From assembly GCA_030649055.1 (NCBI GenBank), contig JAUSGH010000001.1, positions 10,907 through 74,906 on the forward strand: a DNA stretch of 64,000 nt, in the 5' to 3' direction. Shown here piece after piece: positions 3,737 through 50,943 of this stretch; within the stretch, counting starts at the first letter, position 1; the number at the start of each line of letters is the position of its first letter. This DNA is from a bacterium (GTDB taxonomy: Bacteria; Patescibacteriota; Minisyncoccia; UBA6257; JAUSGH01). Position numbers and translations under genes: made by a program. Below the pieces are notes generated by a model. It did no database searches. It saw only the letters and a program-made list of their open reading frames with translations, and had not been told where the DNA came from.

Positions 3737-4717
3737 CTATACGTAAATGACTTCTTCCTCAAGAACTATACCAAATTTTTTCTTTACTTGCGACTTTACA
3801 AGTTTAATCAGCGACTTCACATCGCTTGCCGAAGCGTCCAGCACGTTCACGATAAAGTTCGGATGTTTGGGTGAAATCATCGCGCCGCCATAGCTTACGC
3901 CTTTGACGCCGCTGGCTGCAATGAGATACGCGGCAGGTACTACAGGAAACGGATCATTCTTTACTGGAATCGCCGACCCACGCAGACTAAACGCTGACTT
4001 ACGCAGAGCTTCCGCGTAGTTCCGCGTGCGTTCCGCGTAAATCTGCGTCACTGGGACATTTTTGAATATACTGCCGATGTTCGGATAATCCATCGGATGC
4101 CGCTCTTCGCGGTAGCGGATTTTTTCGGCAACTGTCCTTGCGATGACAGCCGGGTCCCCCGTCTTCATTTGCAGCGTTGCTTCCAAAATTATTTCTTCGC
4201 CGTCGTTAATTTTGAAGATGCTGTTGCGGTAGCCAAAGGCACATTCATTTGCCATGCGGTTCATGAGGCGCGGTTCTTTTTTTGCAATGTTCAAACTCGC
4301 GACTTCAAACACCGCATCTTTTGTTTCCCCGCCAAATGCGCCGGCGTTTCCTCGGATGGCGCCGCCAACGGTGCCGGGAAGCCCGCCCGCCCACTCCAAC
4401 CCGGCGAGTCCGTGGATGGCAGCGAAGTCTACAAGTTCGCGCATGAGGACACCCGCGCCGACACGGATTTTTGTTTCATCGGCGGAGATGTGCCCAACGG
4501 CGGGCTTGATGACCAAGCCATCGAATCCTCCGTCATTGATGAGCAGGTTTGTTCCCCCACCGAGGATAAAAATGTCGCGTTTTTTTCTCTTGATTTTTCT
4601 CCATTCTTTGAGCGCGGCAATAATTTCATCGGCCGATGCCGGTTCACAAAAGTACCGCGCGATGCCGCCGATTTTGTAATTACTATAGAGGCTTAATTTT
4701 ACGTCGTGACGGAACAT
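3737..4717 (-). CDS. murB: UDP-N-acetylenolpyruvoylglucosamine reductase MurB
   Basis: FAD-binding GGGTNLL motif, GLAGLEWAGGLPGTVGGAIRGNAGAFGGE and SYGGAMISPKHPNFIVN motifs. Confidence 0.9.
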   Translation of the reverse strand: MFRHDVKLSLYSNYKIGGIARYFCEPASADEIIAALKEWRKIKRKKRDIFILGGGTNLLINDGGFDGLVIKPAVGHISADETKIRVGAGVLMRELVDFAAIHGLAGLEWAGGLPGTVGGAIRGNAGAFGGETKDAVFEVASLNIAKKEPRLMNRMANECAFGYRNSIFKINDGEEIILEATLQMKTGDPAVIARTVAEKIRYREERHPMDYPNIGSIFKNVPVTQIYAERTRNYAEALRKSAFSLRGSAIPVKNDPFPVVPAAYLIAASGVKGVSYGGAMISPKHPNFIVNVLDASASDVKSLIKLVKSQVKKKFGIVLEEEVIYV

Positions 4718-4931
4718 GATTGAAATAAAAAAGAAAAAGAAGCACTGGCTTCCTTCGTGCGACAGTTACAATGTACGCGCGTTGATTCTATGCCCTGAGC
4801 GACTGCCAGTGGTGACCTCCAATTCTATTTGTGTTGAACGAGTGCGCAGCCGGCAATCGCTCGGGAGACGGAATCAAGAACGCAATGCGTTCATTTATAT
4901 TATAATGCACGAACACCGTGCGAAGCAAACT

Positions 4932-5058: not shown

Positions 5059-5448
5059 CTAGAAAATATTCTCGTAATAATTTATTAGAAAATTATTTCC
5101 CAACTCTGTCAAGTACTCCGGAAAAAGCTGAACAGCGGCGACGTCCGCCCTCCATCCCCTCTCCCCTACTTGCTCCGGGTACTTTAATGCGTAGAATTCC
5201 GCGATCTTTTTGAACTTCTTTACCTTCGCCGAGGTCATATTGTCCTCCGGCTTTAACGCGGCTCCCCCGCCAGTAAGCAAGGTCTTTACCTCTATAAATA
5301 GAAGCAACCCATCTTTCGCCTTTGCAACGATGTCGATTTCACCGAATTTTTGCCGGTAGTTTCTTGCGATGATTTTGCAGCCACTTTTTACGAGGTGCTC
5401 TACGGCAAGCTCCTCGCCGAGATCACCGATGGTTTTGGTTGATGTCAT
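5059..5448 (-). CDS. yraN: YraN/UPF0102 family endonuclease
   Basis: GDLGEELAVEHLVKSGCKIIARNYRQKFGEIDIVA...LLFIEVKT matches UPF0102. Start trimmed to the internal ATG (MTSTKTIG). Confidence 0.75.
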   Translation of the reverse strand: MTSTKTIGDLGEELAVEHLVKSGCKIIARNYRQKFGEIDIVAKAKDGLLLFIEVKTLLTGGGAALKPEDNMTSAKVKKFKKIAEFYALKYPEQVGERGWRADVAAVQLFPEYLTELGNNFLINYYENIF

Positions 5449-5504
5449 ATGCGTTACAGTGTTTGACGGCAAACACTCGTACAATCCTTCGACAAGCTCA
5501 GGAT

Positions 5505-6015
5505 AAATAAAACAATAAAGCAATGAATCAAAAAAGCAACACAATGTTTACCGTCAAACAATGTTTACCGTCAAACATTGTTTCAGGCGAGGATGTTTGC
5601 CGGCAAACATTTGAAATGTATCAAAAGCCACTAAAAATACGGCAAGAGTACTGTTAATACGGCAAAACATGCTACTTTGCCGTATTTGTTTTATATTTTC
5701 GGTGAAATTGTTTCACGTCAAACACGCAGACAAGAAAACAATAAAGCAATAAATCAAAGAAGCGACAGATGTTTGCCGTCAAACAATTGTTTGACGGTAA
5801 ACAATTGTCTTGGGTGGAGGACATCGAAAAAACGTGATAAAGTGTTTGCCGTCAAACAATTGTTTTGGTAAAAATGACAAAAGTGTAGGTTTAATCAACC
5901 GATTGGATTATGGAGAAATTGCCTAGAAAGTAGGCTATAAAATGTTTAACAGATTGTTTAACGCCATGTAAATAAGTCAATCGGATAGGTTTAATCAACC
6001 GATTGGATTAAAAAA
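5505..6015. repeat. Cluster of iteron-like or operator-like direct and palindromic repeats in a 650-bp non-coding gap
   Basis: tgtttaccgtcaaaca is repeated in tandem three times at 5548-5598. Two roughly 70-bp imperfect direct repeats lie at 5507-5578 and 5737-5808. A perfect 22-bp palindrome ccgtcaaacaattgtttgacgg lies at 5777-5798. aggtttaatcaaccgattggatta occurs at both 5887 and 5988. Confidence 0.6.
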
Positions 6016-6112
6016 CACCCGTGAAACAAATTATACTGTAAAACAATATTGTGCGACAGATATGTAAAGTGTAACGGCCAGCTCGAGGTTGTCGGGCTGG
6101 CCGTCGTGTAGA

Positions 6113-6661
6113 TCACTTCTTGCTGTTCGCGATGCGGTGCTGCTCGAGCCGTTCGGCGGCAGCAAGGATGGAAAGCCAATACTGCATGAGTTCCGCGGTA
6201 TCGTCGCTGCCGCCGGGCCGGCAGTCCAGGATGCGCTTTAACGCGGCGATGAGCTCTCGGCGTGTTTCGCCGTCAAACTCTTCGACGGCGATCGTTTTGA
6301 CGCGTAGCGCTCCGGCAATCATATCTGCGACAACGCTCGCATCCTTTTCGTCTACACCGCCATAGGCACAGATGGATGATTCCAGCATCGTGCCGATGCG
6401 CAGATTGTGGACACACGCAATCGCGTCAAGGTCTCCCTGCAGCTGCGCGCCTTTGAGGAGGACATCCGGCGGCGACATGATATTTCCGACGTACGCATGA
6501 AGTTCCTCGTGTGTCATGTGCTGGAGCGAATTCTGCCGTTTGTACAGCCACCAGTGAGCGCGTTGGCACCAGTAGTAGATACCGCTCATCGCGAGCACGA
6601 GCAGTGCGAGCCCGACGACCGTCTGTCCGAACGGTGTGAGGAGCCGATACAAGGTATCCAT
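6113..6661 (-). CDS. Hypothetical membrane-anchored protein (N-terminal TM helix)
   Basis: 182 aa ORF with a hydrophobic N-terminal helix (VVGLALLVLAMSGIYYW). Last gene of a GC-rich three-gene minus-strand cassette. Confidence 0.5.
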   Translation of the reverse strand: MDTLYRLLTPFGQTVVGLALLVLAMSGIYYWCQRAHWWLYKRQNSLQHMTHEELHAYVGNIMSPPDVLLKGAQLQGDLDAIACVHNLRIGTMLESSICAYGGVDEKDASVVADMIAGALRVKTIAVEEFDGETRRELIAALKRILDCRPGGSDDTAELMQYWLSILAAAERLEQHRIANSKK

Positions 6662-6714
6662 GTGACCTCCGTAATGGAATGGCGGTGAATAACTGATTAC
6701 AGTATAACGCTATT

Positions 6715-6760
6715 ATTTAAAAAAAGAAAATCGCCGGCTCCCGGGAAGGGGAGTCGGCGA
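6715..6760 (-). terminator. Intrinsic terminator for the minus-strand cassette gene
   Basis: Hairpin cgccggctccc / ggggagtcggcg followed on the minus strand by a T-run (plus-strand ttaaaaaaagaaaat). Confidence 0.55.
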
Positions 6761-6779
6761 TCGGTGCGTTCGTGGGGTG

Positions 6780-7064
6780 CTAGCGTCCGCTGGGCGACCA
6801 CTTCGTCAGCGGCTCCAGCTTGTAGATGACGATGGCGCCATCCGCGGGATGGAAGCAGGGGAGGAACCCTTTCTCCACAAGCCACGCGGCGCGCTCCTGG
6901 AACTTGCACTGGGCAAGGAGCGCCCTGCTGCACTGACCGGGAGGGAGGTTGAACCGCTCGTGCTCCACGAGCGTCAGCCCGTCCTTCAGACGCTCCCGTA
7001 CTCCGCGCCAGGTGAAGATGCTCTGGCCGATCTTGGTCGGGTTAGGAACGGCGTTTCTGGGCAT
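6780..7064 (-). CDS. Hypothetical protein (94 aa)
   Basis: ATG at 7064 is preceded by a GGAGA RBS. Trimmed from the longer ORF 6780..7325. GC-rich. Confidence 0.45.
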   Translation of the reverse strand: MPRNAVPNPTKIGQSIFTWRGVRERLKDGLTLVEHERFNLPPGQCSRALLAQCKFQERAAWLVEKGFLPCFHPADGAIVIYKLEPLTKWSPSGR

Positions 7065-7129
7065 CCCATTTCTCCTTCTGACAAACCGAATGGCGGAGGA
7101 CTCCGGACAGTTCTGTTTACTCCTTTCTG

Positions 7130-7531
7130 TTAGGCGACCGCAGTAACATCCGGCGCCACGAGGTTCACGATGCTCTCGGCATCCTTGAGGAAGCCGTAGA
7201 CATTCTCCAGTGCGAATGGGATGTCGAAGCGCACTTCGTTGAAGCTCCAGTCGGCGCTGAGGTTTTCGTTCAGGTCGTGGAAGACCCTCAGGAGCAGCTG
7301 CCATGCCTCCCGAGTTGCGTCCCACGCCAGCTTCTCACTGAGCGTAGTGGGATTTACCCCAACGACGTCAAGGTAGAGTACGCACCGGTGTGCATCACCG
7401 CGGTGACGTTCCACGGTGAACGTGCGCCGCAGGATGCCCTTCGTTGCGTGGTGCTGCGGCCCATTGTCGGTCACCACATCCCTGTTGAGCTGTACGCAAA
7501 TCGCGACAGCTCCGGTAATCCGTTGCATCAT
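7130..7531 (-). CDS. Hypothetical protein (133 aa)
   Basis: ATG preceded by an AGGGGA RBS. First gene of the GC-rich cassette, divergent from the dksA-like gene. Confidence 0.45.
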   Translation of the reverse strand: MMQRITGAVAICVQLNRDVVTDNGPQHHATKGILRRTFTVERHRGDAHRCVLYLDVVGVNPTTLSEKLAWDATREAWQLLLRVFHDLNENLSADWSFNEVRFDIPFALENVYGFLKDAESIVNLVAPDVTAVA

Positions 7532-7670: not shown

Positions 7671-8015
7671 ATGGCATTCACTAAAGAACAATTTGCAATT
7701 TTACGGTTGAAGTTGGAGGAGACGCTTGCCGATATTAAAGACGAGCTGAAAGGCGTTGATGGGAAAGTGACGGATATGGGCAGTGACAACGATCATCTTG
7801 AAGAAGAAGAGGATGAGGCCGAGGAGTTTTCCGTAAACGTTGCGATTGCGGGTGGATTAAAGGATCGTCGCGAGAATGTTGAAGTCGCGCTCCAGAAAAT
7901 GGCTGAAGGGAAATATGGGAAATGCGAGAAGTGTGGCATGGACATCGGCATGGACGTGCTCATGGCCGACCCTGAATCGCGACTTTGCAAGCATTGTAAG
8001 GAGGGCGCGAAATAG
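7671..8015 (+). CDS. DksA/TraR family C4-type zinc-finger protein
   Basis: C-terminal CEKCGMDI...CKHC zinc finger, acidic coiled-coil N-terminal region, 114 aa. Confidence 0.75.
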   Translation: MAFTKEQFAILRLKLEETLADIKDELKGVDGKVTDMGSDNDHLEEEEDEAEEFSVNVAIAGGLKDRRENVEVALQKMAEGKYGKCEKCGMDIGMDVLMADPESRLCKHCKEGAK

Positions 8016-8078: not shown

Positions 8079-9629
8079 ATGAAAAACTTTTCAAAACTGT
8101 ATTCCGCGGAACTTGACGGCATTGACGCGCGGCTGATTGAAGTGGAGACAGACGTGAATGTGGGGCTCCATAGTTTTGCCATCGTCGGACTCGCGGATAA
8201 ATCCATTTCTGAGGCAAAAGAGCGTGTGAACTCCGCGTTAAAAAATATCGGTGCCAAAGCTCCGAACCGCGAAAATCGGAAAATCGTTGTGAACCTCGCG
8301 CCGGCGGATGTAAAAAAAGTCGGTTCGCACTACGACCTTGCGATCGCCCTTGGGTATCTTTTGGCTACCGGTCAGATTGCGCCCGTTGATACGAAGAGCA
8401 AACTTTTTCTTGGCGAACTTTCACTTGAAGGAAATCTTCGGCCGGTCGGCGGGGTGCTGAACATGGTGCGCGCGGCAGCAGCGAAAGGGTTTGATGAAGT
8501 TTTTGTGCCAAGCGCGAATGCCCGCGAAGCGGCGATTGTGGAAGGCATCGCCGTGTACCCTGTTGTTGCCTTGCGCGAGCTCGTTTCGCATCTTGAAGGG
8601 AAGGCGGGGATTGAGGCGCAGCCGAAAACCGAAATCATGGACGCGACCACGGGTATGGTGGACTTCGCGGAAATTAAAGGCCAAGCGTACGGTAAGCGCG
8701 CGTTGACCATTGCCGCGGCCGGTGGACACAATATTTTTATGGTCGGCGCTCCCGGTGGGGGAAAGACCATGCTCGCGGAAGCGTTCGCCGGAATTTTGCC
8801 TCCGCTCACGACCGAGGAGGCGCTGGAGGTGACGCAAATATACAGCGCCGCCGGCATGCTTCGTGAGGCGCCATACATTTCCGCGCGGCCGTTCCGCTCG
8901 CCGCATCACACGGCATCTCCCGTGGCTGTCATCGGCGGGGGAACGAACCCACGCCCGGGTGAAATCAGCTTGGCGCATCGCGGCGTGCTTTTTCTTGATG
9001 AGATTCCGGAGTTCCGCCGTGACTTGTTGGAGGCATTGCGCCAGCCGCTGGAATCCGGAAAAGCGCATATTGCCCGCGCCAACGGCAACACCGTGTTTCC
9101 GGCGCGGTTCACGCTTGCCGCGGCAATGAACCCATGTCCTTGCGGCTACCATGGCGACGAAGAAAAGGCGTGTACTTGCGGCGCGCATGAAGTGCTCCGC
9201 TATCAGAAAAAAGTATCCGGTCCATTGCTTGACCGCATTGACATCCAAATCCGCGTGCCGAGAGTGAAACCGGAGGAGCTGCGCGCAAAACTTGTGTCCG
9301 GCGAAACAAGCGCGGAGGTCCGCGCAAAAGTCATTGCCGCGCGCGGAGTGCAAGCTGAACGGTTTGCGCGGCTGGCAGTGAAGGCAAAACACCGCCCTCG
9401 CGTGAACGCGGAGATGACTTCAAAACAGTGCGACGACTATATTGTATTTACCGCCGAAGCGGAAAAGTTTTTAAACACCGCGCTCAAAGGCGCCCAGCTT
9501 TCCGCCCGGGGATATTTCCGCGTGCTGAAGGTGGCGCAAACCATCGCGGACTTGGAAAACGCTGAGAAAGTTTCCGATGCACACCTCGCGGAGGCATTCG
9601 GGTACCGGCTACGGAATCAGGAGATGTAA
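8079..9629 (+). CDS. comM: Mg-chelatase-like AAA+ ATPase, YifB/ComM family
   Basis: Lon-protease-like N-domain, Walker A GAPGGGKT, CPCGYHGDEEKACTCG zinc motif. 516 aa. Confidence 0.85.
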   Translation: MKNFSKLYSAELDGIDARLIEVETDVNVGLHSFAIVGLADKSISEAKERVNSALKNIGAKAPNRENRKIVVNLAPADVKKVGSHYDLAIALGYLLATGQIAPVDTKSKLFLGELSLEGNLRPVGGVLNMVRAAAAKGFDEVFVPSANAREAAIVEGIAVYPVVALRELVSHLEGKAGIEAQPKTEIMDATTGMVDFAEIKGQAYGKRALTIAAAGGHNIFMVGAPGGGKTMLAEAFAGILPPLTTEEALEVTQIYSAAGMLREAPYISARPFRSPHHTASPVAVIGGGTNPRPGEISLAHRGVLFLDEIPEFRRDLLEALRQPLESGKAHIARANGNTVFPARFTLAAAMNPCPCGYHGDEEKACTCGAHEVLRYQKKVSGPLLDRIDIQIRVPRVKPEELRAKLVSGETSAEVRAKVIAARGVQAERFARLAVKAKHRPRVNAEMTSKQCDDYIVFTAEAEKFLNTALKGAQLSARGYFRVLKVAQTIADLENAEKVSDAHLAEAFGYRLRNQEM

Positions 9630-9684: not shown

Positions 9685-10809
9685 CTACATTCCCAAAAAC
9701 GGCAGAATTGCTTTCAGTCCGTTGAATGATGTGGAGATGATGAGGTAGTTGCCGAAGATGCCGTAGTTGAATGACGCTCCGGGTTTTGTGAATGTTGCAT
9801 AGCGCGTAGGAACACCATTTACTTGCCCGGCCTTGAATTCGCCTTTCGCGCCCGGATCTTCAATGTAGAAAGGAGCAAGGTTAGCCGATTCAAGCCGGGC
9901 AAAGGTGGTTTGCGCGTCGCTCGGGATTGCCGAGGGCTTCAGCGCGGCAACGTACCCCGGCCAATGGCCGTTGTTGTCAAAATACGCGAAGCCGGAGAAA
10001 TCGTCGGCGATAAGATCTTTGATGGTGTTGGCGGCAAGTTCGGGTACGAGCGCGTTCAAGAAATCACCGAACGGAACTTGGCCGCCATTTGAAAAAACAG
10101 CGAGTTCGTCCATCACGTGCGGTGCGGTGTGATTCGTCACCTCGCGGACTGTCGCCGCCATAATTGCCTCGGCGGTTATTGAAGGAAGGTCGAGCTGTGC
10201 TTGTGATGGTAGCGGATTGGGAAAAAGGGAAACATGCGGCAGCGGTTGTGGCGCTGAAACCCTCGGCGTCACAACGGGCTCGGGTTCCGGCGCTTGCGGA
10301 GTGAATATAAGCGGGTAGACGACGTAATAACCCAAGAGTCCCAGCACGACGACGCCAACAATACTTCCGCCGATAATGGCGATAAGTTTTCCGGATGGGT
10401 TCCCTGAGATCGCAACGCCATCGGGAAGTTGACCAATGGTTCCCGGCGCAAACACGGGCGTTTCATCGTCCAGGTCTTCCAATCGGATTTTTTTTGCTTC
10501 AGCTCCGGCACCTCCTGATGCCGAAAGCGTTTCCGCGTCCGAGGTGAGCGAACGAATGCGTACTTCCGGTCCCGGCGGGGGAGGGGTTTTCATTTCAGAC
10601 GGCGCCATCGGCGTCGGAACAGTTGAAGGCATTCCGGACGGGGCAACGGGTGCCACGTGCTGAAAGTCGCGCGTCATCGGCGGCGGCGGAGGCGGAGTGG
10701 GTCGCGGAGGAACCAGCGGAGGCGGAATAGGACGAGGCGGGAAAGACGGCTGATTATTTGCTAATGACTTCGGCGGAAGATTATTAAGATTTGATGGGAG
10801 GTTGTCCAT
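9685..10809 (-). CDS. Hypothetical single-pass membrane protein with a Pro-rich N-terminus and an extracytoplasmic domain
   Basis: 374 aa. PPRPIPPPLVPPRPTPPPPPP tract, one TM helix (IAIIGGSIVGVVVLGLLGYYVV), C-terminal domain with no recognised motif. Confidence 0.6.
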   Translation of the reverse strand: MDNLPSNLNNLPPKSLANNQPSFPPRPIPPPLVPPRPTPPPPPPMTRDFQHVAPVAPSGMPSTVPTPMAPSEMKTPPPPGPEVRIRSLTSDAETLSASGGAGAEAKKIRLEDLDDETPVFAPGTIGQLPDGVAISGNPSGKLIAIIGGSIVGVVVLGLLGYYVVYPLIFTPQAPEPEPVVTPRVSAPQPLPHVSLFPNPLPSQAQLDLPSITAEAIMAATVREVTNHTAPHVMDELAVFSNGGQVPFGDFLNALVPELAANTIKDLIADDFSGFAYFDNNGHWPGYVAALKPSAIPSDAQTTFARLESANLAPFYIEDPGAKGEFKAGQVNGVPTRYATFTKPGASFNYGIFGNYLIISTSFNGLKAILPFLGM

Positions 10810-10810
10810 A

Positions 10811-10938
10811 CCCTGTGCTACAACTTCGATTTACCCTGTGCCACAACTTACATACGCAATTTTTGGAAGATACCTTACCTATTGAGGCGTTCGCAATGGC
10901 CATTTCCTCAATCACGTATGATTTGTTGTGGCACAGGG
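10811..10938 (-). promoter_or_regulatory. Structured 5' UTR element with mutually exclusive pairings at the start codon
   Basis: Three copies of a 14-mer. ccctgtgctacaac at 10811-10824 abuts the ATG. ccctgtgccacaac at 10834-10847 and its reverse complement gttgtggcacaggg at 10925-10938 can form alternative hairpins. A nested hairpin attgagg/cctcaat lies at 10881-10913. Confidence 0.5.
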
Positions 10939-16451: not shown

Positions 16452-17063
16452 CTACTGGCCGTTGTTGCCGGACTCACCGTTCCCGCCGCTCGTCGCCGCG
16501 GTCACGGGCTCGAGTGCCGGCTCGGTCGTCGCCAGAGCCGGTTCCGCCGCCGGCGTGGTCGTGGGCGGCTGCGTTGCCGCCGCGATCTGCGCCTGGAGCG
16601 CCTTGATGGTCTTCTGCGCGTTCGCCGCGCGTCCGTTCGCCTCGGCGAGCTTCCTGCGCGCCTCGCTGAGGTTGTTCTTCAAGTCGTCCTCCGCTCGCAA
16701 GTTCGTGTCCTTCAGCGCCTGAATCGTCTGCTGCGCTTTCAGCCGCTGGTCGTCCTTGCCGTGCTGGTAGGCCTCGTCCATGACGTCCCACAGGCTCTGC
16801 ATGGCCGGGACCTCTCCCGTGTTGGTGTTGATCGTCTGGCTCATGAGCCAGGAGAGGAGACCGTTGTAGTCGCCGACCTGGCGGATGACCTTCGCCTTCT
16901 TCCCGTCGAGCATCGTGATCTCGCTCCCCGGCACGTACTTGTGCGCGGGATTCTCGATGGTCATCGTGGGCACAAACTGCAGCAACCGGCCGCCCTCGTA
17001 CTGCTTGTGGGCCTCGCACCAGCCCGTCTCCACCACTAGGAACCGTCCAACCAAACTCTTCAT
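16452..17063 (-). CDS. Hypothetical coiled-coil protein with a Thr/Pro/Ala-rich C-terminal tail (GC-rich)
   Basis: AAGGAG RBS 9 nt before the ATG (MKSLVGRF). Central heptad-like region (LKAQQTIQALKDTNLRAEDDLKNNLSEARRKLAEANGRAANAQKTIKALQAQI). Confidence 0.5.
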   Translation of the reverse strand: MKSLVGRFLVVETGWCEAHKQYEGGRLLQFVPTMTIENPAHKYVPGSEITMLDGKKAKVIRQVGDYNGLLSWLMSQTINTNTGEVPAMQSLWDVMDEAYQHGKDDQRLKAQQTIQALKDTNLRAEDDLKNNLSEARRKLAEANGRAANAQKTIKALQAQIAAATQPPTTTPAAEPALATTEPALEPVTAATSGGNGESGNNGQ

Positions 17064-23195: not shown

Positions 23196-23738
23196 ATGCG
23201 TATATTTATGAAAAAATTTTTTATCACATCAAGCATCGCCTTTCTCGCAAACACGTCAATCGTGTCCGCTGCCGGAATCGTTCCGCAGTGCGAAGGCGTC
23301 ACCTGCTCCATCTGCGATCTCATTAAGCTCGCGCATAACGTGATTCAGTATGCTATTCAACTTTCGTTCGCGCTCGCCGTGGGAATGGTGGTGCTTGGTG
23401 GCTATTATCTGATTACCGCCGGCGGTTCGGAAGAAAAAGTGACGCAAGGGAGAAAAATTGTATGGTACGCGGTAGTGGGACTGGGCATCGTGCTCTCGGG
23501 TTGGGTGCTTATCAATACCATGTTTCAGATTCTCATTAAGTCGCCGTCACCGCGGCCATGGAATGATATTCCCGATGATTGCGGATTGCCCGGAGTAGTG
23601 AATACGATGTCGGCGCCGCCGGTGGTTGGGGCGTCCGGCGCGTTGGAGCCTCAGGGTCCATCGAGCGATCTCATGACTAACCCGAACGACGAAATCAATC
23701 AGCGTTTTCGCGCGCCCGGGGGCGGCGGGAGTTTGTAA
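23196..23738 (+). CDS. Pilin-like small membrane protein, paralog 1 (TrbC/VirB2-like architecture)
   Basis: Signal peptide, CxxC, then two TM helices bracketing a LITAGGSEEKV...GRKIVWYAVVGLGIV motif, and a Gly/Pro-rich tail. The start could be the ATG at 23208. Confidence 0.5.
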   Translation: MRIFMKKFFITSSIAFLANTSIVSAAGIVPQCEGVTCSICDLIKLAHNVIQYAIQLSFALAVGMVVLGGYYLITAGGSEEKVTQGRKIVWYAVVGLGIVLSGWVLINTMFQILIKSPSPRPWNDIPDDCGLPGVVNTMSAPPVVGASGALEPQGPSSDLMTNPNDEINQRFRAPGGGGSL

Positions 23739-23792
23739 AGCCCGCACGCTTGCTTAACGGCGGCAGAACAATGTGTTAGGGTAAAATAAATC

Positions 23793-24227
23793 ATGCTTAA
23801 TCTTCTCGTCAAAACTGCGCACGCGATTACTATCGCTAACCCGTTGGGATACAATACGATTTCCGATCTTATTTGCGGCATCGCTGCCGCGTTGGCGGTG
23901 ATTGCCGGAGCTATAGCGGTGATTATGGTGCTCTACGGCGCGTTCCAGATTTTGACCGCCGGAGGAGAACCAAAAAAGTTCGAGGAAGGCAGGCACACCA
24001 TTATTTACGCCGCGATCGGTCTCGCGGTGGTACTTCTTGCGAGCGGCATTGTTTCGCTGGTAGGAAATATTTTAGGTGACGCCGGAATACAAACGGGAAT
24101 CTTCAGCTGCGGACGGGGCGCGCCGACACAAAATATCCCCGTTCCCATCGTTCCGGAACGTAATCCGTTGTGGGGTAATGACTTCCCAATACCGTCATTA
24201 GATGAGCGTTCTACATTGCGTTTATAA
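23793..24227 (+). CDS. Pilin-like small membrane protein, paralog 2
   Basis: ISDLICGIAAALAVIAGAIAVIMVLYGAFQILTAGGEPKKFEEGRHTIIYAAIGLAVVLL shares the architecture of paralog 1. Confidence 0.5.
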   Translation: MLNLLVKTAHAITIANPLGYNTISDLICGIAAALAVIAGAIAVIMVLYGAFQILTAGGEPKKFEEGRHTIIYAAIGLAVVLLASGIVSLVGNILGDAGIQTGIFSCGRGAPTQNIPVPIVPERNPLWGNDFPIPSLDERSTLRL

Positions 24228-24322
24228 CGCATCCCGGGCACTTTCGCTGTTTTTTAGAAACGGATATGTTATATTGAAACCATAGCATTTTACCGAAAGG
24301 TCGATTATTCACAACATTCAAC

Positions 24323-24694
24323 ATGAAAAATACATTAAATAAATTGGCTGTCGCGGGGGTGGTGGTGATGGCGCTTGCTCCGCTCGCGAGCTTCGCGATT
24401 GTCGGCGTCAACCCGACGCTCCCGTCGGCTGATCTCACTCTCGGAAAGGTAACGACTCTCATTGGCACGATTGCCAACTGGATATTCGCCATTTTCCTTG
24501 CCGTCGCGGTGGTGTACATTCTCTACGCGGCGTATTTGTACTTGAAAGGAGAAGAGGCGGAAATTGAAGAGGCGAAAAAGCGTCTTATCGCGGCAGCGAT
24601 TGCCATCGCAATCGCGTTACTCGCAAAAGGTATTCAACCGTTGGTGGAGAACTTGCTCGGAAGCCAAGGGCAAGGAGGCGCAGGAATCCTTTAG
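24323..24694 (+). CDS. Pilin-like small membrane protein, paralog 3
   Basis: Signal peptide, two TM helices and a LYLKGEEAEIEEAKKRL linker. Same family layout as the two upstream genes. Confidence 0.5.
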   Translation: MKNTLNKLAVAGVVVMALAPLASFAIVGVNPTLPSADLTLGKVTTLIGTIANWIFAIFLAVAVVYILYAAYLYLKGEEAEIEEAKKRLIAAAIAIAIALLAKGIQPLVENLLGSQGQGGAGIL

Positions 24695-30771: not shown

Positions 30772-30844
30772 GGGCGTGTAGCTCAATGGTTAGAGCACCG
30801 AGCTTATACCTCGGTGGTTCCTGGTTCGAGTCCAGGCACGCCCA
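30772..30844 (+). tRNA. tRNA-Ile (anticodon TAT)
   Basis: Acceptor gggcgtg/cacgccc, D-arm gctc-aatggtta-gagc, anticodon stem ccgag/ctcgg with loop cttatac, T-arm cctgg-ttcgagt-ccagg. No CCA encoded. Confidence 0.7.
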
Positions 30845-30890
30845 CAAATTTATTACATCCGAGCGAACCGATTGCATGCTAAAGGCATGG

Positions 30891-46657: not shown

Positions 46658-47552
46658 AATGATTACACTGAAATGTTGACCTTAAAGCATAACCCCTGCG
46701 GCTCCTAGTCCTCCATAAAGAGGACAATTTCCAGAGCCGCGCACAGCGGCTTTTGTCGTTGTAAGGGGACCGGTGCTGACTGAAACGAACGGACATTGAT
46801 AAACAGGATCTGACAGAAAATTCTTTTTTGTCGGGTGCTCATAAGTAAATCAATGCAAATGAAAACGCAATTTCAAGAGTATTATCGAAAGCATTCAATG
46901 CTTCGATGATCGGTTTTACTGCTCAATATCTGCATGATGGCGGAGTATTGAGTACGCCTCGTTAAGTCGCCTCAGGCGACCGCGAGGTTGCACGCGTTGA
47001 ATTCAGAGCGTGTATAAGGGCGTATGGTGGATGCCTAGACACAAAATGGCGATGAAGGACGCAGCATAACTGCGATAAGCTTCGGGGAGGTGTGTAGCAA
47101 CCTTTGATCCGGAGATTTCCGAATGGGGAAACCCTGCGCGGTAAACCCGCGTAACGCATGCGATTAAACGCGCATGTGAGCAGACCCGCTGAAGTGAAAC
47201 ATCTCAGTAAGCGGAGGAATAAAAATAGATTAGATTCCCCAAGTAGCGGCGAGCGAAAAGGGAACAGCCTAAACTTTAGTGTGTGCAGCAATGTATACGC
47301 TGGAGGGTTGCAAGGGTAAGACATTTTTGCGTATCGCAAAGCTCTCGTTAAACAGGGCTGTGCGATTCGCGGAAGATTGGTTACAAATTGCTTCGTTAGC
47401 TGAAGCTTCTGGAAAGAAGCGCCAAAGTGAGTGATAGCCTCGTAAGCGAAAACAAAGCAACCAATTCGTTTTATTTCTTAAGTACCTCGAGACCACAACA
47501 TCTCGAGGGAATCCGCCAGTACTATCTGGTAAGGCTAAATACATTTTGTGAT

Positions 47553-47589
<37 letters not shown>

Positions 47590-49458
47590 CAGCCCGGCGA
47601 GGGCGCTGAAATAGTACCTGAAACCATATGTCTACAAGGACTAGAAGTCCAACCACTGAGCAATCAGTGGCGGACAACTAGGTGCCTATTGAAGAATGAG
47701 CCAACGACTTTACGTTTACTGCTTGTCTAAGTCGCTTCATGCGACGGAGGCATAGGGAAACCGAGTGTTAATAGCGCGTTCTCTTATTTATGACCGAGTA
47801 GCTGGTATGCTTCCAGCGTTCGGTCATAGATGAGAAGGCAGTAAGTGTAAGACCCGAAGCCAAGGCGAGCTTGCCCTGACCAGGATGAACCCGAGCGAAA
47901 GCGAGGGGGAGGTCCGAACCAGTTGATTGTGCAAAATCTTTGGATGAGTTGGGGTAAGAAGTGAAAAGCTAATCGAGCTTGGTAATAGCTGGTTCTCTCC
48001 GAAATAGTTTTAGGACTAGCGTTCCGCAAAAACCGTATGGGGGTAGAGCACTGGTTGATTCGTATTGGGGGAAACCTCGGCGCATCAGTCAAACTCCGAA
48101 TACCATACGGGACGCGGGATAGTCAGACTGTGGGGGCAAAGCTCCATGGTCGCGAGGGGAATAGCCCAGACCGTCGTCTAAGGTCCCTAAATTCTTGCTA
48201 AGTGTAAAAGGTAGTCATGCCCCAGAGACAGATAGGAGGTTGGCTTAGAGGTAGCCATCCTTTAAAGAGTGTGTAACAACTCACTATTCGATGGGTCGTG
48301 GCGCCAAAAATGTACCGGGGCTAAGCAAGATACCGACGACACGGGTGTCCATGACTTCGGTCGTGGACGCGGTAGGAGAGCATTCTGATTGCTGTGAAGG
48401 TTCATCCGTGAGGAGGACTGGAGCGTTCAGGAGTGAGAATGTTGGCATGAGTAACCATCAAATCCGATGAGAAATCGGATCCCCGAAAATCCAAGGTTTC
48501 CGTGGCAATGGCAATCAACCACGGGTTAGGCGATCCTAAGGCAATGGCGAAAACCGTAGCCGATGGGTAGCCGGTTAATATTCCGGCCCGCGCTTATTTG
48601 TGCGATGGGGTGACGGAGGAAAAAAGGTTGAGCGTCTCAATGGTTTGACGTCGCTGATGATAAGGAATGTGTTCTTGGCAAATCCGGAGCACTGTGTTTA
48701 ATCGCGAATTCCGCGCGTCGGCGTAAGGCCAAGTTTTACTTGGCTAATTCAACTGAAGAGCCTTCCAAGAAAAACCTCTAAGTTTAGGATAAGCGCATCG
48801 TACCGTAAACCGACACAGGTGGGTGAGGCGAGACGCCTCAGGGGAACGAGTGAGTCTTGGTCAAGGAACTAGGCAAAAAAGCGGCCGTACCTTCGGTATA
48901 AGGCCTGCCCGTCACGCCGCAAGGTGTGCATGGGCTGCAACAAAAGTACATTTGGCGACTGTTTATCAAAAACACAGCTTCCTGCTAACTCGTAAGAGGA
49001 TGTATAGGAGGTGACACTTGACCGATGCGAGAAGGTTAACGGTGGGTGTGTATTCGAAAGCAATTTTGGATATGCTCACTGCCCGAAGCCCTCGTCAATG
49101 TCAGCGGTAACTATAACCGTTCTAAGGTAGCGCAATTCCTTTCCGGGTAAGTTCCGGAGCGCATGAATAGTGTAACGATCGAATGACTGTCTCGACCAAG
49201 AGCTCGGTGAAATTGCGATTCCCGTGAAGACGCGGGATACCTGTAACGGGACGAAAAGACCCCGGGAGCTTTACTGTAGTTTGATATTGGCTTTAACGTT
49301 TTTCTGCGTAGCGTAGTGGCGAGGGTATGAAACCTGGTTTTCGGATCAGGTGGACCCGACAATGAAACAGCCATCTGGAAAATGTTAAAATCTAACCTTT
49401 ACGGCAAAAACGTATTGGGACAGTGTCTGATGGGCAGTTTTAATGGGGCGTTATCCTC

Positions 49459-49793
49459 AACAAAACGATTGACATCCGTTCAATCGAGGGGGTTAACGTA
49501 ATAAAAAATTCAGCTATATGCTGGGACATCCGTGCATCTTCAAGTACTCGGGCGCTTCGCGCTCAGTGAAAATCTTGAAGTGGCATCCGCCAGGTGGCGG
49601 ATCGACGGACAATCAGCAGGCAACCTCCGACGGACATCGGAGAGAGTCCTCAACGACTATACGCTGAACATCGTGATGTCACTCGCGATGAAGATATAGT
49701 CTGACCTCTGTGGCGACACAGAGAGTTGTGGTAGAAATGCCGCGCCGATCACCGGCAACTAAATTTTAGAGTTGCTGGCGATGTGTAACAAAT
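49459..49793 (+). other. ORF-less insertion of about 335 nt in 23S next to the P-loop region (candidate group I intron)
   Basis: Flanking sequence reads ...ggcgttatcctc | insertion | ctaaaaagtaacggaggag. The flanks together restore the conserved GGTCTCCTCCTAAAGAGTAACGGAGGAG. Boundaries +/- 2 nt. Confidence 0.55.
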
Positions 49794-50127
49794 GCCTAAA
49801 AAGTAACGGAGGAGTTTATTAAGGTTGGCTTAGCGCGAATGGAAACCGCGCTGGACGTGTAAACGCAAAAGCCAGCTTGACGGCAAGACCTACAAGTCGC
49901 GCCGGTGCGAAAGCAGAAGTTAGTGACCCGATGATCCGTCATAGAATGGTCAGAGACATCGGCTAAAAGTTACCCCGGGGATAACAGGCTAGTCTGGTCC
50001 GAGAGTTCCTATCGACGACCAGGCTCGGCACCTCGATGTCGGCTCGCCCTAGCGCGGAGGTGGAGAAGCTTCCAAGCGTATGGCTGTTCGCCATTTAAAA
50101 GGGCACGTGAGCTGGGTTCAAACCGTC

Positions 50128-50401
50128 AACGAAAAAGAACCTAGAGAAGACATCAACAAACGGCGGCGCTTTGCCGTAAGGCAAAGCTGAGAAGTTGACT
50201 CATATCGGTGAAGTCCTACAAAATCTTTAACCTGGGTTTTGAGGATAACCCCGAGGGAAGGTCCGATGAACGTCGGACCCCCGTAGAGACTTGATCGTAA
50301 GGGATCGGAATCCGGTTTTATAATCGGGTTAATACGTCAACCCTCCGATGAATATCGGAGTGATGGTATAGTCCAAACAATTAGTAATAATTGAGTATTG
50401 C
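50128..50401 (+). other. ORF-less insertion of about 274 nt in 23S at the I-CreI-type homing site (candidate group I intron)
   Basis: Flanks aaccgtc | insertion | gtgagacaggttagtc restore the conserved AACGTCGTGAGACAGTTCGG. Boundaries +/- 2 nt. Confidence 0.55.
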
Positions 50402-50826
50402 GTGAGACAGGTTAGTCTCTACCTGTTACAGGCGTGTGATGCTTGAGGGCAGTCGACCCTAGTACGAGAGGACCGGGTTGAACGAACCTCTGGTCTACCA
50501 GCTTTAGTACCAACTGAATCGCTGGGTAGCTAAGTTCGGAAGGGATAAGCGCTGAAAGCATATAAGCGCGAAGCCTAGCCCAAGATAAGGCATCTTTCCG
50601 CAAGGAAGCAGTCCGTAGAAGATTACTACGTTGATAGGTCGCAGGTGTAAGATCAGTAATGATTTCAGCCGAGCGATACTAATAGACTGTCACACGCTCT
50701 GAATTGAGCGCATGAAAGTAGCGTTCTCTGTAGAAATATAGAGGGCGCCAGTAAAACCGATCATCAAAGCATTGAACCCCCGCCTTTCGGCGGGGGGAAA
50801 GGGTTAGAAAAAACAACCTTTTTGTT

Positions 50827-50943
50827 TGCTGGTGTTTTGTTTCGATGTGTCCCACCTCTTCCCATTCCGAACAGAGTCGTGAAAGCATCGTGAGCCGATG
50901 ATACTAGCTGCTTCGGCGGCCGGGAAAGTAGGATATGCCAGCA
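50827..50943 (+). rRNA. rrf: 5S ribosomal RNA
   Basis: tgctggtg...cccacctcttcccattccgaacagag...ccgatgatact...gggaaagtaggatatgccagca. Confidence 0.85.

Follow-up and report, generated by a model that had tools for sequence, protein, structure and literature searches.

In chromosomal ParABS systems, ParB nucleates at parS, whose canonical chromosomal form is TGTTNCACGTGAAACA, and spreads from there as a clamp that depends on cytidine triphosphate (CTP), as outlined in a review of the field (PMC7022226). Here we analyse a stretch of 64,000 nucleotides (hereafter the window; positions 10,907 to 74,906 of contig JAUSGH010000001.1) from a bacterium of the Patescibacteria, or candidate phyla radiation (CPR), in which a non-coding gap upstream of the gene yraN carries eight palindromes of the parS type. 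These sites resemble those of Bacillus subtilis Spo0J and Caulobacter ParB in being 16-bp dyads with identical TGTTT/AAACA arms and a central CG, in lying as clustered copies in one chromosomal neighbourhood, and in including one site that matches canonical parS at 15 of 16 positions; orthologous arrays of other CPR genomes are made of perfect canonical parS. They depart from the known systems in that positions 6-7 read G(A/C) instead of CA in 12 of the 16 half-sites, and in that the eight sites are packed into 400 bp and fixed upstream of yraN rather than beside parAB. We propose, with a probability of about 0.72, that the gap is a ParB-loading centromere array of eight parS-type sites that also covers the leader of yraN.

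The gap measures 664 bp (5449-6112) and is flanked by yraN and an open reading frame (ORF) of 182 aa, both on the minus strand; a first-pass annotation, made from the sequence of the window without database searches, had rightly described it as a repeat-packed non-coding gap of about 650 bp. It holds eight exact TGTTT-N6-AAACA palindromes (S0-S7, Table 1), all within about 400 bp, and the rest of the 64-kb window holds none, whereas dinucleotide-preserving shuffles of the 64 kb gave 0.06 copies on average and never more than 2. When up to two mismatches are allowed, the additional matches outside the gap occur at chance level only. Since the motif is unique to the gap within 64 kb, it is the site of one locus and not that of a global regulator, which the annotation had named as an outcome that would refute its interpretation. 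The distances between successive sites are irregular (85, 17, 32, 115, 61, 18 and 55 bp). Every site is an inverted repeat of the form TGTTT-NN-CG-NN-AAACA, and its outer arms and central CG match those of canonical TGTTTCACGTGAAACA. None of the 16 half-sites departs from TGTTT or from the C of the central CG, the variation being confined to positions 6-7, with half-site centres of GAC (seven), GCC (five), ACC (three) and CAC (one). Placed in the parS frame (TGTT-N-CAC/GTG-N-AACA arms with a central CG), all eight sites fit, and both arms and CG are invariant in the relatives described below; across 42 arrays the central CG is present in 245 of 259 sites.

Centres of this kind were also found at par loci outside the CPR. 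The 16-mer of site S4, TGTTTCACGTCAAACA, occurs twice in the non-CPR locus L002, 19 bp upstream of soj-spo0J, and the variants TGTTTGACGTCAAACA and TGTTTATCGACAAACA occur upstream of soj-spo0J in the non-CPR loci L011 (three copies) and L006 (two copies), respectively. Judged by sequence and position, these three matches show that centre variants can serve genuine par loci. In Myxococcus xanthus, the parS cluster adjoins parAB. This origin-proximal cluster of 22 sites is, like the array of the window, a dense chromosomal one with a lineage-specific variant consensus, TGTTCCACGTGGAACG (Table 1 of PMC7022226). In Myxococcus, however, it is the arms that vary (position 5/12) and no link to yraN has been reported, whereas the window varies at positions 6-7. 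The sites of Noc (Noc-binding sites, NBS; TATTTCCCGGGAAATA; PMC7383237) have the same 16-bp architecture, and the NBS-type C at position 7 is seen in 8 of the 16 half-sites of the window. Position 2, in contrast, is always the G of parS (16/16) and never A, which sets the sites apart from NBS, and position 6 is mostly G, found in neither parS nor NBS. Noc is not known outside Bacillota.

The closest comparison is offered by two loci, L114 and L118, whose YraN proteins are 85% and 72% identical to that of the window. Their synteny is identical to it (comM, dksA, three unknown ORFs, a gap of about 650 bp, yraN, murB, hpf, secA), and they carry eight and seven sites, respectively, none of them outside the gap. 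When the three loci are aligned, the site arms and the central CG are invariant and positions 6-7 and 10-11 change; at one aligned site, for instance, the centre is GACGGC in the window, GCCGTC in L114 and CACGTC in L118. The array of L118 includes one canonical parS and several half-canonical sites. Invariant arms and CG with drifting centres form the pattern expected for selection on a protein-binding site whose centre is read loosely in this lineage, and the alignment shows purifying selection on the arms and the central CG.

The two variable positions are structured by lineage. In 41 non-redundant arrays, the within-array entropy of half-site positions 6 and 7 is 0.83 and 0.96 bits, compared with 1.45 and 1.74 bits after shuffling, and none of 2000 shuffles reached the observed values. 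At position 7 the dialects fall roughly into an A/C group (CAC, GCC, GAC, ACC, TAC) and a T/G group (GTC, AGC, GGC, ATC). This position is 'position 6' of Jalal et al., at which parS has A and the Noc site C, and which is read through residue 201 (PMC7383237). The dialects may reflect a diversification of ParB specificity in CPR bacteria. Array growth driven by duplication, of which the 72-bp duplication in the window shows an example, could add to the homogeneity within arrays, and co-diversification of ParB and parS is therefore offered as a hypothesis and not as a result. Each 72-bp unit of this duplication comprises an A-rich box, which a search of all loci found in no other lineage and which is not kept in the relatives, and two adjacent sites. 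The arrays provide a natural experiment in ParB-parS specificity, in which the near-invariant centre of parS varies by lineage at the positions that distinguish ParB from Noc.

The distribution of such arrays was followed in two ways. A scan by motif only, covering 185,579 species-representative genomes and requiring a pair of variant sites no more than 30 bp apart, returned 32 loci, 29 of which are CPR metagenome-assembled genomes (MAGs) with arrays of 2-13 sites, from groups that include Saccharibacteria, Parcubacteria, Liptonbacteria, Paceibacterota and Colwellbacteria. A yraN homologue lies immediately beside the array in 24 of the 29 CPR loci (two are cut at the array and three are without yraN); no par or dnaA genes were found in these 8-kb loci. 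As the scan demanded a non-canonical centre, this first locus set over-represents variants. An unbiased control was obtained by protein only: an alignment of CPR YraN proteins was searched against metagenomes, which gave 80 loci, 78 of them with usable upstream DNA. In 14 of the 78 a 5-N6-5 palindrome arm recurs at least three times in the kilobase upstream of yraN, and in 14 of 14 that arm is TGTTT. Perfect canonical TGTTTCACGTGAAACA makes up most of the sites in eight loci (L069, L070, L074, L077, L078, L080, L084 and L085), with 3-8 canonical copies per array. Because these eight arrays selected through YraN are mainly canonical, the array of the window is, on sequence grounds, a local variant of the parS array that many Patescibacteria keep at the same position, directly upstream of yraN. 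Over 39 arrays, the median distance from the end of the yraN-proximal site to the ATG of yraN is 29 bp; in the window it is 11 bp.

Our search of open-access papers and bioRxiv found no description of a parS array in Patescibacteria/CPR, and a 2024 perspective on Patescibacteria makes no mention of ParB, parS, oriC or the DnaA box. Replication and segregation of CPR chromosomes are essentially unstudied despite the large share of bacterial diversity that this group represents. In CPR MAGs the arrays offer ready landmarks, recognisable by their sequence, for the centromere and in many cases for the origin region as well; they can be used to orient assemblies and to estimate replication rates.

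Several variations on the arrangement were seen in individual loci. In L070 (9562-10462), canonical parS sites stand on both sides of yraN, seven upstream and three immediately downstream, and the gene is thus embedded in the array. Split parS elements, which sit at array edges or replace an array, are found in L084 (~9390-9440 and ~9910-9960) and L124 (~16480-16560); the form TGTTTCAC-N9-GTGAAACA was seen in both loci, and a version with N17 stands at the yraN-proximal edge of the L084 array. Everted half-sites, GACAAACA-N4-TGTTTGTC, occur in L003, L007, L021 and L030. In two unrelated CPR genomes an ORF of the LAGLIDADG homing-endonuclease type separates the parS region from yraN, namely in L033 (755-1216, minus strand, recognised by an LVDGEGCF motif) and in L124 (16658-17167, minus strand, recognised by a match to Pfam LAGLIDADG_1).

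A number of observations weigh against the assignment of the gap as a ParB-loading centromere. If at most one mismatch to canonical parS is allowed, reportedly the usual criterion of parS searches after Livny et al. 2007, only the site at 5709-5724 qualifies (15/16); the other seven of the eight have 3-4 mismatches, all at positions 6, 7, 10 and 11, and that the ParB of this lineage accepts a G at position 6, or a C at 7, is a prediction. No array was present upstream of yraN in 64 of the 78 loci selected through YraN, and the two named Harrisonbacteria relatives found via ComM show half-sites that are dispersed or split instead of a complete array. Searches by tblastn and with a hidden Markov model (HMM) detected no gene for ParB or ParA, either in the 64-kb window or among about 120 related loci, which are fragments of up to about 20 kb, and the existence of ParB in this genome is thus an assumption. 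The tblastn searches used Spo0J, Soj and DnaA queries, which recovered the expected genes in control loci, and the ParB HMM was built from the three ParB genes of L002, L006 and L011. A cultivated CPR bacterium, Southlakia epibionticum, does encode ParAB: SEML1_0183/0184 are assigned to K03496/K03497 with PF02195 and PF17762, and their GD/ES/ES scores in transposon sequencing (Tn-seq) indicate a fitness/essentiality phenotype (PMC10633639 supplement). For proximity to the origin, too, this lineage gives no clear sign: there is no DnaA box within 500 bp of the gap, dnaA is absent from the 64-kb window and from 10 kb on either side of yraN in L114 and L118, and the GC skew, about +0.08 towards comM, drops to about 0 towards yraN but does not change its sign at the gap. 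Finally, the tight linkage to yraN and the additional conserved motifs show that segregation alone is insufficient to explain the whole module.

The same observations bear on another explanation, namely that the gap is the chromosomal replication origin or a part of it, with the palindromes, the motifs AATNCGGCAA and ATATTGTGCGAC and the repeated 25-mers of the gap (Table 1) serving to organise the origin; this would be compatible with ParB binding, the origin role being the primary one. We consider it unlikely for the window, even though arrays are often origin-adjacent in the CPR. The perfect DnaA box TTATCCACA occurs 17 times near arrays and 8 times far from them (0.33 vs 0.026 per kb, 12-fold, p=2e-9) and is present within 500 bp of 15 of the 42 arrays; box clusters of the type TTGTCCACA...TTATCCACA were found in L003, L014, L027 and L032; in L084 and L085 the array is separated from dnaA-dnaN by 2.5-4 kb, and in L073 from dnaA by about 5 kb, the overall span being about 2.5-8 kb. 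The module also holds several conserved motifs other than parS, and divergent gene orientation about the region is seen in the first locus set as well as in L114, L118 and the window, where gene orientation changes about 2 kb from the gap, at 7531/7671. In the second locus set, however, gene orientation around the arrays is mixed, and in L084 the DnaA boxes are at dnaA-dnaN and not at the array. The gap itself does not present a DnaA-box cluster with an AT-rich unwinding element. The first-pass annotation had seen no DnaA box, and the gap contains none with up to one mismatch; there is none within 500 bp either, the nearest in the window being at 6871, and none in the gaps of L114 and L118, where as in the window the best candidate is TAATCCAAT, with a 6/9 match. 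A GC-skew analysis, which the annotation had called for over the whole contig, was run for the window; the skew lacks a sign switch, and when the effects of coding strand and replication were separated, an origin at the gap remained unsupported, while for orthologous CPR arrays the link with DnaA-box clusters or dnaA is frequent. On balance, this gap is probably not itself oriC.

If the gap is a centromere array, the following sequence of events, modelled on what is established for ParABS, may be envisaged. Dimers of a ParB encoded at another place in the chromosome would nucleate on each site, close into CTP-bound clamps and slide onto the flanking DNA; the loaded ParB would build one large partition complex, which would be moved by ParA and would load SMC. 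The promoter or leader of yraN would then lie under the partition complex and expression of yraN would probably be damped: because the proximal site is 11 bp from the start codon and the leader is inside the array, ParB occupancy is expected to throttle transcription of the gene. A conserved, -35-like TTGACT is found on the minus strand at 5975-5980; as a candidate -35 element, it would place the whole array in the yraN leader.

A precedent for such control exists in Streptococcus pneumoniae, in which ParB spreading from parS represses competence genes (comCDE; PMC4488948). In both cases a ParB complex nucleated at parS would extend over genes of the transformation pathway, the array of the window covering the yraN leader. 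The pneumococcal case differs in that one parS exerts its effect on regulatory com genes over several kb, whereas the window has a whole array up against the start codon of a recombination-step gene, with a predicted effect on expression. KorB of plasmid RK2 is a ParB-family protein that is both a centromere binder and, at its OB sites, a repressor. The principle is similar, in that a ParB-family protein on palindromes serves partition and promoter control alike; the KorB sites, however, are a different palindrome scattered over the plasmid and KorB is plasmid-encoded, and nothing in the window is plasmid-borne. YraN is described as the nuclease partner of the ComM helicase in the resolution of transformation D-loops, and yraN and comM are co-localised in 34% of the genomes that have both (bioRxiv 10.1101/2024.02.06.579203). 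The arrays amount to a testable link, via yraN and comM, between the segregation machinery and natural transformation in naturally competent organisms.

The position of the sites could also suggest an operator array for a dedicated transcription factor other than ParB, controlling the divergent yraN and dksA-comM. The sites overlap the yraN leader/promoter region in nearly all arrays, at the median distance of 29 bp from the ATG given above, the products of yraN and comM work together in transformation (bioRxiv 10.1101/2024.02.06.579203), and the half-site dialects are lineage-specific. Yet arrays of 7-13 sites far exceed the needs of an operator, orthologous arrays are perfect canonical parS, the same variant 16-mers stand at soj-spo0J in non-CPR genomes and no regulator gene is conserved beside the arrays. 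Since ParB itself would be a simpler account of any regulatory effect, we regard a dedicated regulator as improbable. YraN was also considered as the palindrome binder and rejected; its Legionella counterpart, a monomeric nickase, shows relaxed specificity, which makes binding of the palindromes by YraN unlikely.

The parS-type sites are accompanied by other motifs, for which a zone of about 450-500 bp around the arrays was compared with the rest of the same loci after full sites had been masked. Isolated half-sites are over-represented near the arrays. The motif AATNCGGCAA occurs in 60 copies within 500 bp of the 42 arrays and in 11 copies elsewhere in the same loci (p=3e-39), often as the palindrome CGGCAATTGCCG; besides the window, it is borne by L003, L005, L010, L017, L021, L025, L030, L033, L053, L061 and others. 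We know of no binding site that AATNCGGCAA matches. A second motif, the edge element TTTGCGACA / TTGTGCGAC, is represented by 20 copies near arrays and 2 far from them (p=3e-15). It is found as ATATT(G/T)TGCGAC at the array edges of very distant CPR loci, in L008, L009, L020, L026 and L084, and in reverse orientation in L014/L027/L063. In L084 two copies flank the array, the element lying within a palindrome of about 50 nt that contains a split parS. In the window both motifs are present, the first as a triplet of AATACGGCAA and the second as ATATTGTGCGAC, and both are invariant in L114 and L118. The sequence that the annotation had seen repeated 100 bp apart proved to be a 24/25-mer, separated by exactly that distance. 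Both copies are kept in L114 and L118 and absent from all other loci examined; this 25-mer, whose TAATCCAAT has a counterpart in the TAATCCACA beside the array of L033, may be a lineage-specific variant of the DnaA box.

Three copies of AATNCGGCAA and one of ATATTGTGCGAC in the gap imply at least one further binder besides ParB. We tentatively suggest a composite CPR module, consisting of the parS array, AATNCGGCAA, the TT(G/T)TGCGAC edge element and often DnaA boxes, which would be locked to yraN and comM. In such a module ParB would be both the centromere binder and the gatekeeper of the gene for a nuclease of relaxed specificity, the DNA specificity of CPR ParB would have diversified at positions 6-7, the very ones that separate ParB from Noc, giving rise to the A/C and T/G dialects at position 7, and AATNCGGCAA would mark a further origin or centromere protein. 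In any event, two new conserved DNA motifs, AATNCGGCAA and ATATTGTGCGAC, come with the arrays.

The first-pass annotation had read the gap as periodic protein-binding sites, and in kind this agrees with a ParB-loading array, which is a cluster of binding sites for a dimeric DNA-binding protein involved in replicon maintenance; the sites are, however, palindromes of the parS family and not direct-repeat iterons, and the plasmid or phage origin that the annotation had in mind is not borne out. Iterons of such an origin, in an integrated or episomal element, would account for short repeats crowded into a non-coding gap beside a short AT-rich patch. But iterons are direct repeats in the same orientation, bound by a Rep protein encoded in cis, and the repeats of the gap are palindromic. 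A rep gene, which the annotation had proposed to look for nearby, was not detected in the 64-kb window, nor were parA, parB or dnaA (tblastn, with the HMM for ParB). The surroundings are housekeeping chromosome, their synteny is kept in the relatives, and searches of the PLSDB plasmids, of phage genomes and of 2.9 million viral contigs matched nothing similar. As an iteron-type origin the gap was rejected on every count, that is, on same-orientation repeats, an adjacent rep gene and a mobile context, and we give this explanation hardly any weight.

The core-chromosome genes of the window include secA, hpf, murB, those of PNPase and ribosomal protein S1, gyrA, ftsH, ftsW, rpoB and rpoC; a xerC/D-type recombinase gene, 23S and 5S rRNA genes and four tRNA genes are also present. 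The top homologues of its ComM that carry a name all belong to Patescibacteria; that of Candidatus Harrisonbacteria is closest (79% identity), followed by Wolfebacteria, Paceibacterota and others. Exact-protein look-ups led from YraN to a single 10-kb Logan contig and gave no match for RpoC or SecA. The window is ordinary chromosomal DNA of a Parcubacteria-type CPR bacterium and not an episome.

Equally remote is the explanation that the repeats are transcribed, as a guide array resembling those of TIGR (tandem interspaced guide RNA) or CRISPR (clustered regularly interspaced short palindromic repeats) systems or as another non-coding RNA (ncRNA), or that they are selfish repeats of the REP (repetitive extragenic palindromic) or MITE (miniature inverted-repeat transposable element) type. 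TIGR arrays with a period of about 36 nt do occur in the CPR (PMC12045711), many CPR arrays of the present family are spaced 35-37 or 41-45 bp, the two peaks of the overall spacing distribution, and palindromes can fold as hairpins. Unlike such arrays, the window has irregular spacing with no regular units, no Nop-domain Tas gene or cas gene nearby, and inter-site DNA that is conserved between relatives and not variable. No Rfam family was found in the gap at the gathering threshold, where there were sub-threshold hairpin artefacts only, and a selfish repeat is at odds with an element that is single-copy and always at the same locus.

Of the finer repeat structure reported by the annotation, the perfect palindromes of 16 bp (site S3) and 22 bp (the junction of two neighbouring sites) were recovered as described, and so were the imperfect direct repeats of about 70 bp, except that the second unit had been placed about 5 bp off. 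The 17-mer said to stand three times in tandem is present as one exact copy, one with two mismatches and one that is truncated (period 17 and 2.5 copies in Tandem Repeats Finder). An AT-rich stretch exists, yet it is short and overlaps the inverted pair of AATACGGCAA. The range 5505-6015 given for the feature is too narrow, as it leaves out the site at 5460-5475 and the conserved element at 6046-6057.

Table 1. Coordinates of the parS-type array, its companion elements and the adjoining genes in the window
Feature	Position	Strand	Description
parS-like site S0	5460-5475		TGTTTGACGGCAAACA; ends 11 bp from yraN start codon; position kept in L114 and L118
parS-like site S1	5545-5560		TGTTTACCGTCAAACA; aligned site of L118 is canonical TGTTTCACGTGAAACA
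parS-like site S2	5562-5577		TGTTTACCGTCAAACA; centre 17 bp from that of S1
parS-like site S3	5594-5609		TGTTTGCCGGCAAACA; perfect 16-bp palindrome
parS-like site S4	5709-5724		TGTTTCACGTCAAACA; 15/16 match to canonical parS
parS-like site S5	5770-5785		TGTTTGCCGTCAAACA
parS-like site S6	5788-5803		TGTTTGACGGTAAACA; junction of S5 and S6 is a 22-bp perfect palindrome (5776-5797)
parS-like site S7	5843-5858		TGTTTGCCGTCAAACA; position kept in L114 and L118; centre varies GCCGTC / GACGGC / CACGTC
Segmental duplication	5506-5803	+	72-bp units 5506-5577 and 5732-5803, 71% identical
Three AATACGGCAA copies	5636-5686		two direct (5636, 5656), one inverted (5677-5686); local form of AATNCGGCAA
25-mer, copy 1	5886-5910	+	TAGGTTTAATCAACCGATTGGATTA; contains TAATCCAAT, 6/9 match to DnaA box
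25-mer, copy 2	5986-6010	+	exactly 100 bp from copy 1
Two degenerate direct half-sites	5943-5962	+	TGTTTAAC twice; canonical half-site in both relatives, GTGAAACA on yraN strand
Isolated canonical parS half-site	6021-6028	+	GTGAAACA; invariant in relatives
ATATTGTGCGAC edge element	6046-6057	+	found at array edges in distant CPR loci
GC-rich hairpin	6074-6104	-	3' of 182-aa ORF; distal end of module
yraN	5059-5448	-	UPF0102, PD-(D/E)xK nuclease; PF02021, E=3.6e-19
ORFs of 182 aa, 181/94 aa and 133 aa, no Pfam family	6113-7531	-	between array and dksA-comM
182-aa ORF	6113-6661	-	
dksA/traR-type zinc-finger gene	7671-8015	+	
comM/yifB	8079-9629	+	

The hairpin at the distal end of the module is probably the terminator of the 182-aa ORF, the sole match of which is a weak one to a transmembrane region. 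The three ORFs without a Pfam family are kept between the array and dksA-comM in the relatives with 72-85% YraN identity, and since this GC-rich three-gene cassette is conserved in close relatives, its recent insertion was ruled out. The genes dksA and comM are the usual partners on the far flank of CPR arrays.

Some further observations concern the wider neighbourhood. Three tandem small T4SS_pilin (PF18895) genes lie at 23196-24694, and the same cluster is found near comM in the Harrisonbacteria loci L122-L124. In L114, two genes past comM, there is a LexA-type repressor gene (4194-4832; LexA_DNA_bind and Peptidase_S24), which adjoins a type II restriction-modification fusion (N6_Mtase/Eco57I); the equivalent stretch of the window differs. 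Within 47004-50943, the 23S rRNA gene spans 3700 nt compared with 2925 nt of the model; it is interrupted by a group I intron at 49461-49723 and holds about 500 nt of additional insertion. The 5S gene follows it, and because no 16S gene is found anywhere in the 64-kb window, the rRNA genes are unlinked. A tRNA-Ile with the anticodon TAT (UAU) is encoded at 30772-30845; such a tRNA is uncommon in bacteria, where AUA is usually decoded by a lysidine-modified CAU tRNA.

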